This document shows, in pieces, positions 55,070 through 60,753 of a DNA stretch of 64,000 nt. The DNA lies in NCBI GenBank assembly GCA_045597865.1, contig JAZLKX010000028.1, positions 44,224 to 108,223 on the forward strand. The letters run 5' to 3'. The stretch comes from Bacilli bacterium (GTDB lineage: Bacteria > Bacillota_I > Bacilli_A > RFN20 > CAG-826). Each line of letters starts with the position of its first letter. Position 1 is the stretch's first letter. The notes below the pieces were generated by a model. That model saw only the letters and a program-made list of their open reading frames with translations, was not told the DNA's origin and ran no database searches. The translations under genes and the position numbers were made by a program.

Positions 55070-55200
55070 CAAAAATGCCTTTCGTTTTCATCCTTAATGG
55101 TAATAAGCAATTTATAATGAGACCAATTTAGATGTTGCCACAGTGTAGCAACAAAGTATATTTTAGAAAATTTTACCATTCGAGATAGTTCTGAAAAGGA
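55069..55200 (-). pseudogene. DUF1016 (YhcG) N-terminal domain remnant
   Basis: Own translation SFSELSRMVKFSKIYFVATLWQHLNWSHYKLLITIKDENERHF*; aligns with FSRRNLARM...LSWSHY..LL......ERIFY of 55958..56911. Confidence 0.8.
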
Positions 55201-55368
55201 AAATAAATTATAATAAATATAATTTAATACCCTTTTAATTTTGCTAACAAAAAACTTCTCTTAATTCTGTTTTATTGAATGTGTATCAACTTCTATGTGT
55301 AAAATTACCCATATAAGTTTTCCAAAAGAATATTTTCACCACAAGACTCTTTCAAATGATGGATTTCA

Positions 55369-55507
55369 AAACCCCCCGAAATCGGTGGGTTTAAACGAGT
55401 CGAATTCGAGGCGGTTAAAATTTCAAAATCGATAAGTATTCCTCAAACCCGTCGAAATCGGTGGGTCTAAACCAGTCAAATTTGACTAATTTAATTTAGT
55501 CAAATTA
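55369..55507. repeat. tandem array of ~6 imperfect 24-bp palindromes
   Basis: AAACCCCCCGAAATCGGTGGGTTT / AAACGAGTCGAATTCGAGGCGGTT / degenerate unit / AAACCCGTCGAAATCGGTGGGTCT / AAACCAGTCAAATTTGACTAATTT / partial unit. Confidence 0.8.
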
Positions 55508-55543
55508 ATTTTTAAATTTCAAAAAGTATTTTCAAAAACAAGA

Positions 55544-55632
55544 TTGCTTTTTAAAAATAAAATGTAATAATTATTATTAGTCAGTAGGACCGATTACGGC
55601 CGGACTATTTGCTCCTGAAAAGGAGCTTTTTT
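55544..55632 (+). ncRNA. candidate small RNA 1 (promoter, hairpin, terminator)
   Basis: TTGCTT..TGtAATAAT, hairpin TAGTC..GACCG-ATTA-CGGCC..GACTA, terminator GCTCCT-GAAA-AGGAGC-T6; no ORF. Confidence 0.5.
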
Positions 55633-55723
55633 ATATCAAATTTTGCTCTTTTTGAAACTCTTCGATCTTTTGAGCGAATTCTTGTTCCTTCGCGAGGATC
55701 TCTTCTCATATTGCTCATCTATA

Positions 55724-55758
55724 CCCATAGACTGTAATAGTCGTATGGGCCGAATTTT
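55724..55758 (-). repeat. hairpin element A, copy 3
   Basis: AAAATTCGG-CCCATA-C-GACT-ATTAC-AGTC-TATGGG, then a truncated terminator half. Confidence 0.85.
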
Positions 55759-55771
55759 CATAAAAATACTA

Positions 55772-55848
55772 TTTACAAAAAACTGACGAATTGTACAATA
55801 TAAGTGAACCCAAGGTAGCGGATTAAGCTACAATCGGTTCTTTTTTTT
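55772..55848 (+). ncRNA. candidate small RNA 2 / orphan attenuator
   Basis: TTTACA-16-TACAAT, then GAACC..GTAGC-GGATTAA-GCTAC..GGTTC-T8; no downstream ORF. Confidence 0.45.
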
Positions 55849-55957
55849 ATTTCTTTTTAAATTTGTTTAAATAATTATTCACTATATCCTTAGGATAGAT
55901 ACTAACAAGTTTGTTAATATTAGCATTATAATCATTTATTAAAAAATCAATCATACA

Positions 55958-56911
55958 TCATTTGTTCATAAGCTTTTGAATTTCTAATTTCAATAACTCT
56001 TTATCCGGCAGTTGAGTTAAATATTTTCTCACAAAAATTTGATTAGAAATTGAACCTAAAGCATATTCAATTTGAATATCGTCTTTGTCCTGGCACAAAA
56101 CTATACCGATTGGATCACAGTCTGTGTCTTGATTTACTTCTTTTTTATAATAATTAAGATAAAAATTTAATTGCTCAATTGAATTATTGGTAATCTTTCC
56201 TTTCTTAAGTTCTATTAATACAAAGCATTTTAAATTTGTGTTATAGAAAACCATATCCATAAAATAAGATTTGTTATTTATTACTATTCTTTGTTGCTCA
56301 CCAATGAATGCAAAACCTTTTCCGAGTTCGAGCAAAAACATTTTTAAATGCTTAACTAATTCACTCTCCAAGTCTTTTTCTTTGAAATCATCTTTAAGAT
56401 TTAAAAACTCAAAAACTAACGGATTTTTTAAAAATACATTTTCTTTAATGTCTTTTGTTATTAGTTTGTTCTTTGGCGTTGTATCCAATTCTCCAAGCAA
56501 TACTCTTTCATATAATGATGATTTTATTTGCCTTCTAAGTTCACGAACACTCCAACACGCCCTTGAACACTCGCGTTCATAAAAAATTCTTTCCTCATAA
56601 TTTTCAAGAGCTAATAGTTCAGAATAATGTGACCAAGATAAATTGGGCGACACTGTCGCCCCATCACTATAATCTTTATAAAAGATTATCATTCTCGCAA
56701 GATTTCTTCTTGAAAAGCCTTCACCATACTTTGGTCTTAATTCTTTTTCAAGTTCATTAAGTGGCACATTTCTAGAGTTACAGATTATTTCTCCAATTTT
56801 AAGATAGCTTTTAAGTAATACTATGTTAACTGTTGAAACAACATATGATTGGGCTTCTTTAACAACCAACTCAATTTGATTAATAATTTCTTTGTTTTGA
56901 ATCTCTTTCAT
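55958..56911 (-). CDS. DUF1016/YhcG-family PD-(D/E)XK nuclease
   Basis: GFS..NL..M, LSWSHY, WSVRELRRQI...LYER, FLLELGKGFAF, D..FY...LKCFVLIELK, PIGIVLC. Confidence 0.92.
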   Translation of the reverse strand: MKEIQNKEIINQIELVVKEAQSYVVSTVNIVLLKSYLKIGEIICNSRNVPLNELEKELRPKYGEGFSRRNLARMIIFYKDYSDGATVSPNLSWSHYSELLALENYEERIFYERECSRACWSVRELRRQIKSSLYERVLLGELDTTPKNKLITKDIKENVFLKNPLVFEFLNLKDDFKEKDLESELVKHLKMFLLELGKGFAFIGEQQRIVINNKSYFMDMVFYNTNLKCFVLIELKKGKITNNSIEQLNFYLNYYKKEVNQDTDCDPIGIVLCQDKDDIQIEYALGSISNQIFVRKYLTQLPDKELLKLEIQKLMNK

Positions 56912-57041
56912 TAAATGTCCTCCTAATTATAATTTCAGGAGAATTTGTCATTTCCGATAAAAAACTTTCTAAGTCACTAAGTGACTTGTTTTTTTATAAT
57001 AAAAGCCATAAGAGATTTCTTTCTCATATGGCTCATCTATA

Positions 57042-57074
57042 CCCATAGACTGTAATAGTCGTATGGGCCGATTT
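57042..57074 (-). repeat. hairpin element A, copy 4 (terminator at 57004-57033)
   Basis: AAATCGG-CCCATA-C-GACT-ATTAC-AGTC-TATGGG overlapping the KilA-N stop codon. Confidence 0.88.
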
Positions 57075-57882
57075 ACTGCAATAATTTAGGCTTATAACTA
57101 GTAAATAATAGCTTTTCCTTATTGGCTTCTTCATTCAATAATACCAAGCGATCAGATTGTGGAATTCCCTTTTCAATTAACTTAGAATTAAGAAGTTCAA
57201 GATTTGAGAGAATTGTTAATTCAATAACATTTGCGAAATCACGAATATTACCATTTTGATTTGGATTTGCTTGTTTCCATTCATTTGCAGTTACCCCAAA
57301 CAAAGCAACATTAATAACATCTGCTTCTGATGCATATATAAAAGAAATCTGTTGTGGTTTTAAATCAATCTGAATAATGTTTTTCTTAATAGCGTCTGTT
57401 TGAAGCAGATAATTCAAACTTGATAGTTGGCGTTTTCCAGCCCAATCAAGACGTTTGTTTTCTTCTTCTTTTAAACGTTGATATTCACGAATAAGTAAGA
57501 CCTTGAATTCTGCAGATATCCAACTTGCGAATTCAAAAGCAATATCTTTGTGTGCGTATGTACCGCCACCATTTCTTCCAGATTTGACTCTAAGGCCGAT
57601 TGCATTTGTAAGATTAATCCATTTTGCTGGTGACATTGTAAAAGCATTCGTTCCTGGTTTGGTTTTAAACATATCGAAATCGATAGGTTTGAATTCTGAG
57701 TTGAATATAAATTCCCAAAAATGCAAAAATTCTAATGTATCAATTCTTCTCAACCAGTTACAAATTACAATGAATGGCTCTTCTGAATTTTTAGATCTTG
57801 CGATATCTGTAAGTGAGATATAATCATCTTCGTTAACTCCAGTAATGTTAATGTCCAAATTTTTAATTGTAAGTTTTTTCAT
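57073..57882 (-). CDS. KilA-N domain DNA-binding protein
   Basis: DYISLTDIA, NWLR...TLEFL..WE, GR.GGGTYAHKDIAFEFASWIS.EF, YASEAD..N.ALFG.TA..W, GNIRD. Confidence 0.9.
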   Translation of the reverse strand: MKKLTIKNLDINITGVNEDDYISLTDIARSKNSEEPFIVICNWLRRIDTLEFLHFWEFIFNSEFKPIDFDMFKTKPGTNAFTMSPAKWINLTNAIGLRVKSGRNGGGTYAHKDIAFEFASWISAEFKVLLIREYQRLKEEENKRLDWAGKRQLSSLNYLLQTDAIKKNIIQIDLKPQQISFIYASEADVINVALFGVTANEWKQANPNQNGNIRDFANVIELTILSNLELLNSKLIEKGIPQSDRLVLLNEEANKEKLLFTSYKPKLLQ

Positions 57883-58168
57883 AATTGAAACTCCTTTATT
57901 AAGTATGAGAAGAAAAAGAATTCAGTGCGTCATGCACTTAATCCTTCCTTCATCTTTCTCTACAAATATTATATTAAAAATAAGGCGAAAATTGAAGTTA
58001 AAATTAAAGAAATTAAATTATACAAAGTATAATTTAAAATCATACGTATTAAATATATAAATTAAATTTTATTATATTTAATACTCTTTCAAATTTGTTA
58101 ATAAATATTGTAATGATTTTTAAATTAATAAGCCGTGTGAGATGTATTTCTCATATGGCTCATCTATA

Positions 58169-58203
58169 CCCATAGACTGTAATAGTCGTATGGGCCGATT
58201 TTT
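58169..58203 (-). repeat. hairpin element A, copy 5 (terminator at 58131-58160)
   Basis: Near-identical to copy 4 over ~70 bp including the terminator. Confidence 0.88.
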
Positions 58204-58270
58204 CATCAAAATCCTAAGGTTTTCCTTGATATTTATATAATGGAAGGGTATTTAACCGTCATTGTGAATA

Positions 58271-58966
58271 TTAGAATCTCATTCCGCATCCATACATAAT
58301 AAGAATGGCTACACCTATAATTCCACCCATTACTAGAATTCCAATACCGACAATAATTAGAACGCTCTTTATAACATACTTTCTATCATTTGAAGCTTCT
58401 TTAGATAACGATATATTAACAACATTAGTAATGAGTTTATTTTCTAATGTGGCTTTTGTCATTTTTCCAGTTATATCGTTATCTTCTAGAGATGAGGTAT
58501 CAACCTCTTGTTTCATATATGCCTCGATAGTTTGTTTTACATTAAGTAACTTTTTTTGTGTTTCTTGAGAAATTGAATCTGTATACATTTCAAAAACAGG
58601 ACCAGCTAGGTTCCATTCCTTAGTAAGAACATAACTTCTTCTGGAATTGAATGATAAAGAATATGATGAAACATCACCATTTTTTGTAAAATAAGTAATC
58701 GTGATAGTCCAAATAAGAGGATTTCCAACGGTTGATAATGGAGCAGATCCTCCTATAATACCAATTCTACCTGATGTAGATATTGCACCGCCACTTACTG
58801 GTGTTCTTAAAATGTTATTTCTAACTCCTGAATTAGACACCTGAACGGATGATATATTTTCTATTGGGCATATGAATTGCTCAGCAAAATGATAGATGAC
58901 AACAAGGGCTGTGGCTTTTACCGCAGCTACTGCAACCTTAGAATTGAGTAAATCAATTAAAGACAT
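58271..58966 (-). CDS. hypothetical protein with C-terminal TM
   Basis: 231-aa ORF with AAGGAG RBS. Confidence 0.65.
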   Translation of the reverse strand: MSLIDLLNSKVAVAAVKATALVVIYHFAEQFICPIENISSVQVSNSGVRNNILRTPVSGGAISTSGRIGIIGGSAPLSTVGNPLIWTITITYFTKNGDVSSYSLSFNSRRSYVLTKEWNLAGPVFEMYTDSISQETQKKLLNVKQTIEAYMKQEVDTSSLEDNDITGKMTKATLENKLITNVVNISLSKEASNDRKYVIKSVLIIVGIGILVMGGIIGVAILIMYGCGMRF

Positions 58967-59126
58967 AAAGTTCTCCTTTCGTAATGAGCGAACTGCTCTA
59001 TGAAAGACATCAGTAGCTAAACCTCTTCAATTATATCACTTATATTTTTTATATCATCTTAAATAGTGTTTTCGTTTGTTGGCTCGCGTTACAATGTTTT
59101 CATTAGCCTTATTCAATGATATGGTC

Positions 59127-59162
59127 AAAAATTCGGCCAATACGACCTCTTCGGTCTATTGG
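59127..59162 (+). repeat. hairpin element A, copy 6 (followed by palindrome B at 59174-59221)
   Basis: AAAAATTCGG-CCAATA-C-GACC-TCTTC-GGTC-TATTGG. Confidence 0.85.
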
Positions 59163-59596
59163 TGATTATTAGAAAATATCCAGGATTTTAAAGGGATTTT
59201 CCCTGAAATTCCTGGATATTTCTTATTGAAGCACTGTAAGGAATAGGTGCTTAAACTAAGCGTATTTATTAAATAGCGAGTTTACCTTATATTAGTAATC
59301 TAAAATTCAAAAGTTATAGGTTCTAAATAATTATAACTATCAGTGTGGTCTCATTAACAATACATATTAACCAGACCACTTAGTAATCCAAAATATTAAA
59401 AGACTCAATTCATCCTTGCGGCTGAACCCAGTCTTTTCTTATACCTCTATTTTTACTGTTTATAAGTTTTTGGGCATTTTTGTGCTTTTTATTTACAAAG
59501 TAAATAATTTCGTTCACGAAAAATGGGAATAGATTTTTTGTACGCGTGTTATGATTTATATAACCCATAAACATATCAATGCGAAAGGATAAATAT

Positions 59597-60586
59597 ATGA
59601 ATATCGATGAATTAATTAATTTACTTATTAACAAACAAATCAACACTCGAAATAATGCGACTTATTGTGTTAATCAAATGCTTTTAGACATGAATATGTT
59701 TTTTGGCAAATATATTAGCGATTATATAGAAGAAAACAAAAAGCAAAAGAACTGCAAAAAATTAACAATCAGCAAAATTTCTGAAGAACTTACAAAACAG
59801 CTAGGTAAGGGATACTCCAGACAAAATTTGTCAAAGATGTTAATTTTTTATACTATGTATAAAAAATGCTCGGAGGTTCCGAGCAATTTGTCTTGGTCAC
59901 AAATATGCGAACTCCTATATATCAAAAATATCAACGAACGTAAATTCTATGAAATTGAATGTGTAAAACAAAGATGGTCATCAACAGAATTGAGAAGGCA
60001 AATTCAAACTGGCTATTATCAAAGAGTACTGCTCGGTTCGAAAGAAAATATTCAAACAAAAGCAAACCAATTGTCCACTATTGGAAATGAAATTATTGAA
60101 CCTAGAGATATTTTGGTAGACCCCATTGTCTTAAATTTCTTTAAACAAAAAACAAACCTTAAAGAAAAAGATATCGAAACTGGAATTATTGGCCATTTAA
60201 AAGAATTTCTTCTTGAGCTTGGCTCTGGATTTAGATTCATCGACAATCAATATCAATTCAATATATCAAACAAGAAATATTTTGTTGATTTAGTATTCTA
60301 TAATGAAGTGCTTAAATGCTACGTTCTAATAGAGCTAAAGTCAGCACCGTTCCATAAAGATGTTATTGGCCAAATCAATACCTACCTCAACTATTTCAAA
60401 AGCAACATAAACAAACCTGGAGACAACGATCCAATTGGCATTGTTATGTGCACTGATTTTGAACATATACAAGTTGAATATGCATTAGGGAATATATCGA
60501 ATCAAATATTCGTGACAAAATACATTACCCATCTTCCAAAGAAAGAAGATCTCGAAAGAGAATTATTATTAGCTCAAAAACGTTAA
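59597..60586 (+). CDS. second DUF1016/YhcG-family PD-(D/E)XK nuclease
   Basis: GKGYS..NL..M, LSWS, WS..ELRRQI, FLLELG.GF.F, DLVFY...LKCYVLIELK, PIGI; start MNIDE after AAAGGA. Confidence 0.92.
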   Translation: MNIDELINLLINKQINTRNNATYCVNQMLLDMNMFFGKYISDYIEENKKQKNCKKLTISKISEELTKQLGKGYSRQNLSKMLIFYTMYKKCSEVPSNLSWSQICELLYIKNINERKFYEIECVKQRWSSTELRRQIQTGYYQRVLLGSKENIQTKANQLSTIGNEIIEPRDILVDPIVLNFFKQKTNLKEKDIETGIIGHLKEFLLELGSGFRFIDNQYQFNISNKKYFVDLVFYNEVLKCYVLIELKSAPFHKDVIGQINTYLNYFKSNINKPGDNDPIGIVMCTDFEHIQVEYALGNISNQIFVTKYITHLPKKEDLERELLLAQKR

Positions 60587-60623
60587 AATTCGGCCCATAC
60601 GAGCAAAGAGAGTGCTCTATGGG
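60585..60623 (+). repeat. hairpin element A, copy 7 (followed by palindrome B at 60631-60678)
   Basis: AAAATTCGG-CCCATA-C-GAGCA-AAGAGAG-TGCTC-TATGGG overlapping the DUF1016 stop codon. Confidence 0.88.
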
Positions 60624-60753
60624 AATATAGAAATATCCAGGAATTTAAGTGAAAATCCCCAGAAAATCCTGGATATTTTAAAAGAATCATATATAAGACA
60701 TACAAAAACTCAATGACTTATTAGAAGAAAGAAATCTTCCTATTATTGAGTAA

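Follow-up and report, generated by a model that had tools for sequence, protein, structure and literature searches.

A palindrome at one fixed codon position in the DNA-binding-domain coding sequence of DUF1016/YhcG nuclease genes

Why do three related genes of one bacterium each carry a DNA palindrome of different sequence at the same codon? The question is raised by a stretch of 64,000 nucleotides (hereafter the window; contig JAZLKX010000028.1 of the Bacilli bacterium assembly GCA_045597865.1), which holds two full-length genes and one remnant of the DUF1016/YhcG nuclease family. A sequence-only reading of the window had located a palindrome in each of the three, had placed all of them in one codon register, and had argued that selection on the protein alone would not keep the symmetry while the letters change. 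It had proposed a shared mechanism, namely a self-encoded operator, an mRNA hairpin or a hairpin-templated diversification hotspot, and had drawn a parallel with a KilA-N gene of the same stretch. The analysis presented here finds that the observation is real and extends much further than first noted.

All three palindromes of the window were found in place both by direct reading and by an independent scan (Table 1), and each has its centre at the opening base of a codon that precedes the W of the motif L(S/N)WS by six codons. Palindrome 1 has a GC content of 76%, compared with 35% for the genome (1.74 Mb in 58 contigs), palindrome 2 becomes 9+1+9 if the G.T pair beside its centre is counted, and palindrome 3 lies in a frame that reads ...VATLWQHLNWSHY... 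and then meets a stop. In per-gene synonymous-codon shuffles, the observed arm was reached at the palindrome site in 0 of 5000 runs for gene 1 and in 19 of 5000 for gene 2. The family assignment of the two full genes is firm, with matches to DUF1016_N (PF17761; 98.3 and 103.8 bits, cut-off 32.8; gene 1 expectation value (E) 5e-28) and to the PD-(D/E)XK domain YhcG_C (PF06250; 182.3 and 170.8 bits, cut-off 32.5; gene 1 E 7e-54), and both belong to the PADLOC candidate defence family PDC-S02. NCBIfam returned no family for any of five proteins, and a sequence search of the PDB returned no match. For gene 2, the palindrome and the gene itself are borne out, while the start previously assigned to it, 59597, is the second ATG of the open reading frame (ORF), the first lying at 59579.

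To assess the extent of the phenomenon, DUF1016 genes were gathered from 61 related genomes by Pfam, from a set with one genome for each species, and from the viral contigs of IMG/VR. The species set was scanned with an alignment of 13 proteins and with patterns from the nuclease part of the gene, which left the palindrome region without influence on the choice. The 190 loci obtained were reduced to 183 with the conserved W by leaving out one locus without a hit covering the W and those with another letter at that column (F in L021, L022, L148 and L150, L in L162, and a TGA codon in L038); window gene 1 brought the number to 184, and merging identical 72-nucleotide contexts gave 163 genes. By record titles, these come from Bacteroidota, Proteobacteria, Firmicutes, Cyanobacteria, Spirochaetes, Verrucomicrobia, Planctomycetes, archaeal metagenome-assembled genomes and phage contigs. 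In 60 of the 163 genes the base exactly 18 nucleotides before the W codon is the centre of an odd palindrome without mismatches whose arms measure 8 nucleotides or more (10 or more in 26 genes and 13 or more in 21); 200 synonymous shuffles of the same genes yield 0.12 on average and 2 at most. Across the 165,150 positions scanned, 60 of the 82 such palindromes fall on this one base and the other 22 are scattered. If up to two mismatches and small shifts are allowed, a palindrome is carried by 125 of the 163 genes, where 30 shuffle runs give 4.8 on average and never more than 9, and several of the 38 genes scored as lacking one have a weaker palindrome or one farther upstream. Scoring palindromicity against synonymous shuffles, the check that had been suggested for the three paralogues, hence reveals strong enrichment at a fixed codon position, and the argument that symmetry is kept while letters change, beyond what protein-level selection alone would produce, holds across the family. 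A full-text search, with subscription journals and supplementary files outside its range, found no publication that mentions a palindrome in DUF1016.

The parallel with KilA-N is likewise real. The genome that contains the window has one KilA-N gene only, as judged by Pfam and tblastn searches, and the comparison was therefore run on homologues from related genomes (L221-L233). A palindrome is present at the same codon as in the window gene in 9 of these 13 homologues, with outer arms that co-vary around a shared core, compared with a mean of 0.09 and a maximum of 1 in synonymous shuffles. That the same design is found in two unrelated DNA-binding families argues for function rather than accident.

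The anatomy of the palindrome and its covariation were analyzed in a set of 93 canonical DUF1016 genes. Counting pairs outward from the centre, the palindrome reaches depth 14 and then ends, for a maximum of 14+1+14; locus L117 provides an example of perfect 14-nucleotide arms (CAATTTGCCAGACACTGTCTGGCAAATTG). Depths 1-5 are mostly CAGACA / TGTCTG or relatives of it, with a nearly fixed CA-(C/G)-TG core, and depths 10-14 are mostly CAATT / AATTG. Between these two zones, at depths 6-9, every depth shows all four types of Watson-Crick pair and 70-90 of the 93 genes are paired, while at depths 2-8 as a whole pairing is found in 84-93 of the 93 genes. The innermost pair is complementary in 81 of the 93 genes, by means of an A at the third codon position in 79, and the centre base is C or G in 88, even though TTG (Leu) would suit the protein. 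Amino acids follow the changes in the arms: where L003 encodes SHTLCDQ, L004 encodes SHALRGQ, the paired ACA/TGT having become GCA/CGT. The palindrome is an unusually clean natural case in which DNA symmetry overrides protein sequence, with amino acids changing so as to keep the arms complementary. In a subfamily marked by PLTSDG...LSW, the loop has been expanded by in-frame tandem units of 60 nucleotides with two palindromes per unit, as in L191 (positions 745-1094 of the locus, G015:C9), which has 5.8 such units, and two copies of the palindrome occur in single genes in L198 (~677-731 and ~785-839, 108 nucleotides apart) and L201 (~756-810 and ~810-864, 54 nucleotides apart). The second copy in L198 overlies the helix before the helix-turn-helix (HTH) turn, and the peptide QIVVTLSRQL is present twice as a result.

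Within a genome, the palindromes are largely private to their genes. A search of five genomes with a loose pattern returned 13 sites, two of which are the query loci's own; the other 11, in four genomes, comprise 10 in further DUF1016 paralogues, with arms that differ except in the within-gene duplicate of L198, and one asymmetric site outside DUF1016 genes. The genome of the window contains three palindromes that combine a CA-(C/G)-TG core with arms of 8 nucleotides or longer, two of them in DUF1016 genes. A further DUF1016 copy, 5'-truncated and 91% identical to gene 2, lies on the minus strand of another contig (C37, 67614-68438); it bears a 9+1+9 palindrome in which, relative to gene 2, C-G and A-T have been exchanged in a compensated way on both arms. 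The third palindrome of the genome (8+1+8) is found 166 nucleotides upstream of this copy, in a non-coding, terminator-like context.

The nature of the encoded protein bears on what such a site might do. In an AlphaFold2 (AF2) model of gene 1 (mean predicted local distance difference test (pLDDT) 80.5), the palindrome encodes residues 82-92, an 11-residue surface loop predicted between helices 68-81 and 93-100. Residues 27-139 of the model superimpose on the DNA-binding domains of Noc, ParB and Spo0J (7nfu, 7ol9, 6y93, 4umk, 7o0n) with Z of 9.2-9.8 and a root-mean-square deviation (rmsd) of 2.6-3.0 over 91-101 residues, where a Z below ~13 can reflect a common helical arrangement; several of these structures were solved on their palindromic sites. 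Since a Z of 9-10 for an all-helical fold is indecisive, a sequence-profile test was added. A DUF1016_N profile of 28 sequences was aligned by hhalign to a ParB HTH profile of 14 sequences from related genomes with a probability of 95.1% and an E of 3.4e-8 over 66 columns, and one of five N-terminal domains scanned, that of L117, gave a hit to the Pfam family HTH_ParB below the cut-off (E 0.0012, 19.4 versus 22.6 bits). Judged from these profiles, the N-terminal domain of DUF1016 is homologous to the ParB HTH. In the profile alignment, GFSxSNLxxMRxFY coincides with the recognition helix of ParB and LSWSHY with its L(S/T)xGH motif, and the palindrome therefore encodes the segment that immediately follows that helix. 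The model of the C-terminal domain aligns to NucS/EndoMS (Z 12.5, rmsd 2.7, 112 residues), Can2 and the Shedu nuclease. A homodimer model passed its controls with a score of 0.69, compared with 0.01 for the best of three. The mark for passing was attained by 20 of 30 proteins solved as one-chain pairs and by 1 of 23 with a single-chain structure. Solved dimers of related nucleases may have raised the score. The runs share at least 84% of contacts, with a partner pLDDT of at least 68, and the interface is formed mainly by a long N-terminal helix. The modelling supports a putative two-fold symmetric dimer.

Taken together, these results make us favour, at a probability of roughly 0.4, a reading in which the palindrome is a self-carried, operator-like duplex site for the dimeric ParB-HTH nuclease that the gene encodes, kept perfect by template switching. 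A symmetric dimer of the encoded protein would recognise the palindrome in its own gene as its cognate site, so that site and reader would travel as one unit; we infer both the binding of the protein to the palindrome and the effect of that binding. With a nuclease gene that moves horizontally and has no promoter of its own, binding to the coding DNA could act as a roadblock and throttle transcription of the gene, or could park the nuclease at its own locus, in whichever operon or cassette array receives the gene. Arms that differ among the paralogues of one genome would keep these from cross-talk. Template switching between the arms during replication would preserve exact symmetry and would also flip the central base between C and G, turning Leu CTG into Val GTG. 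Of the mechanisms named by the sequence-only reading, the self-encoded operator is thus the one that gains support, from the ParB HTH homology and the dimer model, and the mRNA hairpin and the diversification hotspot do not.

Several observations weigh against the operator-like site. The structural match, with its Z of 9-10 for an all-helical domain, is not decisive alone, and no ParB N-terminal (CTP-binding) domain was found in either protein by Pfam at E up to 0.01, so that ParB-like loading and spreading is not expected. A half-site of 14 bp exceeds the 8 bp of a ParB half-site, as derived from the ~16-bp site given in PMC10786196. The same recognition-helix motif, GFSRSNL, goes with different bases at depths 6-9, a comparison of helix and half-site that rests on the reading of a table and is confounded by relatedness; with bases that vary under an unchanged helix, covariation at these depths needs template switching or true base pairing, not co-evolving specificity. 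The core pair at depth 2 is replaced by a compensated pair in 6 of the 93 canonical genes and likewise in gene 2 (A-T), and such compensated changes fit pairing or homogenisation of the arms better than recognition of a fixed core. Together, covariation independent of the helix and compensated changes in the core favour pairing or arm conversion over the reading of sequence. Finally, a second copy of a 10-nucleotide arm within 600 nucleotides of the gene was detected at only 1 of 124 loci, which argues that there is no promoter-proximal operator; a matching operator of that kind was accordingly dropped as a candidate.

The closest known relatives of an operator-like site of this kind are those of the ParB family (parS, the Noc site, the KorB operators and sopC), whose DNA-binding domain is homologous to that of DUF1016 and alike in fold, and whose sites are also short inverted repeats. 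In KorB operators the palindrome is odd and has G/C at its centre, and sopC is a tandem array with one palindrome per unit; the tandem arrays of the PLTSDG...LSW subfamily resemble the tandem-palindrome centromeres of ParB-family systems. One parS site of B. subtilis lies inside the spo0J coding sequence, in the linker region, a point not stated in two reviews that were searched. In contrast to ParB, DUF1016 proteins lack the ParB N-terminal domain and have a PD-(D/E)XK nuclease as partner, and their candidate site is up to 29 bp long, odd, different in each gene and placed inside the DNA of its own DNA-binding domain, whereas ParB sites are described in PMC10786196 as inverted repeats of ~16 bp. 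Consensus parS was found inside none of the parB genes of 14 relatives (0/14). HTH_ParB itself (E up to 1e-8) was detected neither in the genome of the window nor in more than 1 of the 24 genomes of its genus, compared with 13 of 16 genomes from other families of the order, and canonical ParB may be absent from this genus, the genomes of which are incomplete.

Other intragenic palindromes offer partial likenesses. Rickettsia palindromic elements are mobile, share a sequence and are inserted in frame in unrelated genes; they have in common with the DUF1016 palindrome that palindromic DNA is tolerated in ORFs, and one DUF1016 subfamily amplifies it in frame, but the DUF1016 palindrome is fixed in position, private in sequence to each gene and without copies elsewhere in the genome. 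The perfect inverted repeats of PMC5941160 (Lavi et al. 2018), reported to be conserved through template switching, also have perfect arms that persist over evolutionary time, to which DUF1016 adds an inverting centre; unlike those repeats, it concerns one site in one gene family across phyla, with long, GC-rich arms that co-vary and change amino acids. The repeats of PMC6649704 (2019) are also perfect inverted repeats within functional coding sequence that strike a compromise between protein and DNA structure; they are many, up to 284 bp long and lineage-specific in one genome type, whereas DUF1016 has one short palindrome at a fixed codon in the DNA-binding domain of one prokaryotic family.

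A broader proposition can be put forward only tentatively, since we regard it as possible and yet doubtful. Mobile single-gene defence candidates, including at least the ParB-HTH-nuclease DUF1016 (PDC-S02) and KilA-N (PDC-S22), may represent an undescribed gene architecture in which a private palindromic site is carried inside the DNA that encodes the DNA-binding domain, so that protein and site form an inseparable, self-addressed, orthogonal and promoter-independent unit for autoregulation, or for tethering or licensing an effector at its own locus. DUF1016/YhcG is among the commonest uncharacterised nuclease families, and it has been found in defence islands, Type I restriction operons, conjugative elements and phages, according to PMC9881135, PMC4316617 and PADLOC. 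The family now has three testable handles, namely a ParB-type DNA-binding domain, a predicted dimer and a candidate cognate site that can be read from each gene. If the same is true in KilA-N and in other families, intragenic palindromes in domain-coding DNA could serve to locate the target sites of many orphan DNA-binding defence proteins.

Among the alternatives to an operator-like site, the one that survives best, which we nonetheless hold to be rather unlikely, is that the palindrome has no function and perpetuates itself. An ancestral inverted repeat in the DNA of a tolerant loop would be kept solely by template switching, with selection acting on the amino acids encoded by one partner of a pair and conversion dragging the other partner along. 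Complementarity that runs up to the centre and does not favour wobble pairs agrees with this view, as do the persistence of palindrome 3 in a dead remnant and the rate at which the central base changes. In 15 pairs of close relatives, with a flank divergence of 19.2%, changes in the arms comprise 9 compensated double and 13 single substitutions, and the centre base differs in 40% of the pairs. On a quick tree of 88 canonical genes with a C or G centre, computed with the loop left out, the centre changes 20 times, compared with 24.5 (range 19-29) for shuffled labels, and is hence saturated like silent sites, while arm positions change about half as often as shuffled labels. The central C/G transversion swaps Leu CTG and Val GTG, and its speed is the expected result of the inversion of a one-base spacer by template switching; template switching gives spacer inversion according to PMC8604942, and it is invoked for perfect inverted repeats conserved in Proteobacteria in PMC5941160. 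The toggle between Leu and Val thus records inversion of the centre, presumably via template switching, a process that would account for the traits expected of it, homogenised arms and an inverted spacer, both of which are found here. A functionless repeat would, however, have to last at one site across bacteria, archaea and phages when no other site keeps one (22 of 82 palindromes, scattered). It would also have to do so irrespective of base composition: arm GC content at depths 3-9 is 57% compared with a gene mean of 39%, is higher than that of the gene in 81 of the 93 canonical genes, correlates weakly with gene GC (r = 0.17) and is still 57% in genes of 30% GC, a pattern which suggests selection on the arms independent of genome composition, as does the low divergence of third codon positions inside the palindrome in the close pairs (0-0.13 versus 0.41 in the flanks). 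The in-frame amplification of the unit in some lineages, the sharing of the feature with an unrelated DNA-binding family and the fact that the domain concerned is of a palindrome-binding kind all tell against mere self-perpetuation as well.

We consider it distinctly unlikely that the functional form is a single-stranded DNA hairpin or an extruded cruciform, serving as a recombination, priming or nicking signal for cassette movement or as a substrate of the nuclease itself. Such a structure would be expected to show strict Watson-Crick pairing even where the bases vary, as is seen here, and the predicted DNA hairpins are stable, at -8.2 kcal/mol for palindrome 1 (z -4.1), -9.6 and -5.9 kcal/mol elsewhere in the window and -16.7 kcal/mol in L117, and with z between -3.6 (palindrome 3) and -5.9 for those tested. 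The genes of the window also sit in an apparent cassette array with a bulged hairpin repeat behind each cassette, metagenome contigs join across single cassettes, and the C-terminal domain has a predicted fold like that of NucS/EndoMS, a nuclease that recognises DNA structure. There is nevertheless no sign of recombination at the site, since only 2 of 3741 pairs of genes, both involving L033, are mosaic before versus after the palindrome; the innermost pair is conserved though unable to form in a hairpin; and the palindrome occupies a mid-gene position instead of a cassette end, has no bulges, unlike the cassette-end repeats, and is present in all genomic contexts, phages included. The integron attC site, found at the 3' end of a cassette, folds into an imperfect hairpin that has extrahelical bases and whose outer core sites are conserved; this reading was rejected for the same reasons of position and shape, the bulged cassette-end repeats being a different element.

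Control of a toxic nuclease by a hairpin in its mRNA, sense or antisense, be it a terminator or attenuator, an RNase III site or a protein site on its own message, is very unlikely. The hairpins are stable, in this AT-rich genome a simple terminator scan flags palindromes 1 and 2 (the former in sense, the latter in both sense and antisense), and G.U-type mismatches are more numerous in antisense than in sense. Among the 744 pairs at depths 2-9, however, G.T accounts for 4 (0.5%) in sense and 20 (2.7%) in antisense, compared with 26 other mismatches, so that G.U-type pairs are no more frequent than the rest, unlike in selected RNA stems, and an Rfam search up to E 10 gave chance-level rows only; a structured RNA element was rejected on these grounds. 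An intrinsic terminator was rejected for the family as a whole, since T-rich tails follow only 3 of 125 palindromes in sense and 17 of 125 in antisense, and the flags raised in the window therefore do not reflect the family's function. Both orientations of the centre are, in addition, common. With wobble not spared, the innermost pair kept, the centre held at C or G, T-rich tails rare and no Rfam match, we conclude that the constraint acts on DNA and not on RNA. As for the last proposal, that the palindrome is a hairpin-templated hotspot that exists to vary the loop of the N-terminal domain, the paralogues of one genome do all differ in their arms, variability within the palindrome peaks at depths 6-9 (0.158 versus 0.040 at depths 1-5) and the centre toggles between Leu and Val, but the idea is scarcely credible because in the 15 close pairs divergence is lower over the entire palindrome (9.4%) than in its flanks (19.2%), the loop is short, only the encoding DNA and no template copy is present, and the ORF list and Pfam searches of five ORFs gave neither a reverse transcriptase nor a donor copy in the vicinity of the window genes.

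Table 1. Coordinates of the features discussed, in positions of the window.
Feature	Position	Strand or location	Description
DUF1016/YhcG gene 1	55958..56911	minus	317 aa; ORF, Pfam, PADLOC, AF2 model, fold matches
DUF1016/YhcG gene 2	59579..60586	plus	335 aa from first ATG; ORF, Pfam, PADLOC
Third DUF1016_N remnant	55072..55272	minus	Pfam search: DUF1016_N positions 41-111, one internal stop
Palindrome 1	56645..56661	in gene 1	GGGCGACACTGTCGCCC, 8+1+8; encodes G-A-T-V-S-P
Palindrome 2	59867..59885	in gene 2	TGCTCGGAGGTTCCGAGCA, 8+3+8; encodes C-S-E-V-P-S
Palindrome 3	55133..55153	inside minus-strand remnant	TGTTGCCACAGTGTAGCAACA, 10+1+10, one mismatch
AT-rich palindrome, 9+3+9	56669..56689	gene 1 codons IIFYKDY	reached in 59/5000 synonymous shuffles
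AT-rich palindrome, 11+3+11	59843..59867	gene 2 codons IFYTMYKK	reached in 490/5000 synonymous shuffles
KilA-N gene	57073-57882	minus	PADLOC PDC-S22; between two DUF1016 genes
KilA-N palindrome	57667-57690		codon 68 of KilA-N gene
Cassette-end repeats	~55700-55751, 57020-57069, 58145-58196	minus	minus-strand copies
Cassette-end repeats	~59135-59180, 60592-60640	plus	plus-strand copies

Two further, AT-rich palindromes had been noted in genes 1 and 2. The evidence for them is much weaker, given how often they are reached in synonymous shuffles (Table 1) and that their registers differ between the two genes, and they are probably a by-product of the FYxxYK protein motif and AT-rich codons. Among the loci left out of the survey, L038, from a record of Eubacterium sp. 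TM05-53, has TGA at the conserved W codon where the others have TGG; its context otherwise looks intact and its palindrome is perfect, and the TGA may mark a pseudogene, a sequencing error or a TGA read as W.

Each gene of the stretch is followed by a repeat of ~50 nucleotides, a hairpin with one bulged C whose stem co-varies between copies. About 10 copies are arranged in two arrays, the second of which lies at 64.2-68.6 kb of contig C37, and the truncated DUF1016 copy on that contig is bordered by the same cassette-end repeats as the window genes. Contigs assembled from four metagenome runs contain nothing informative at the palindromes and leave 58249-59036 almost without cover. They do join across single cassettes, for example from 59176 to 60634 and from 60579 back to 59127, and the stretch looks like a cassette array.

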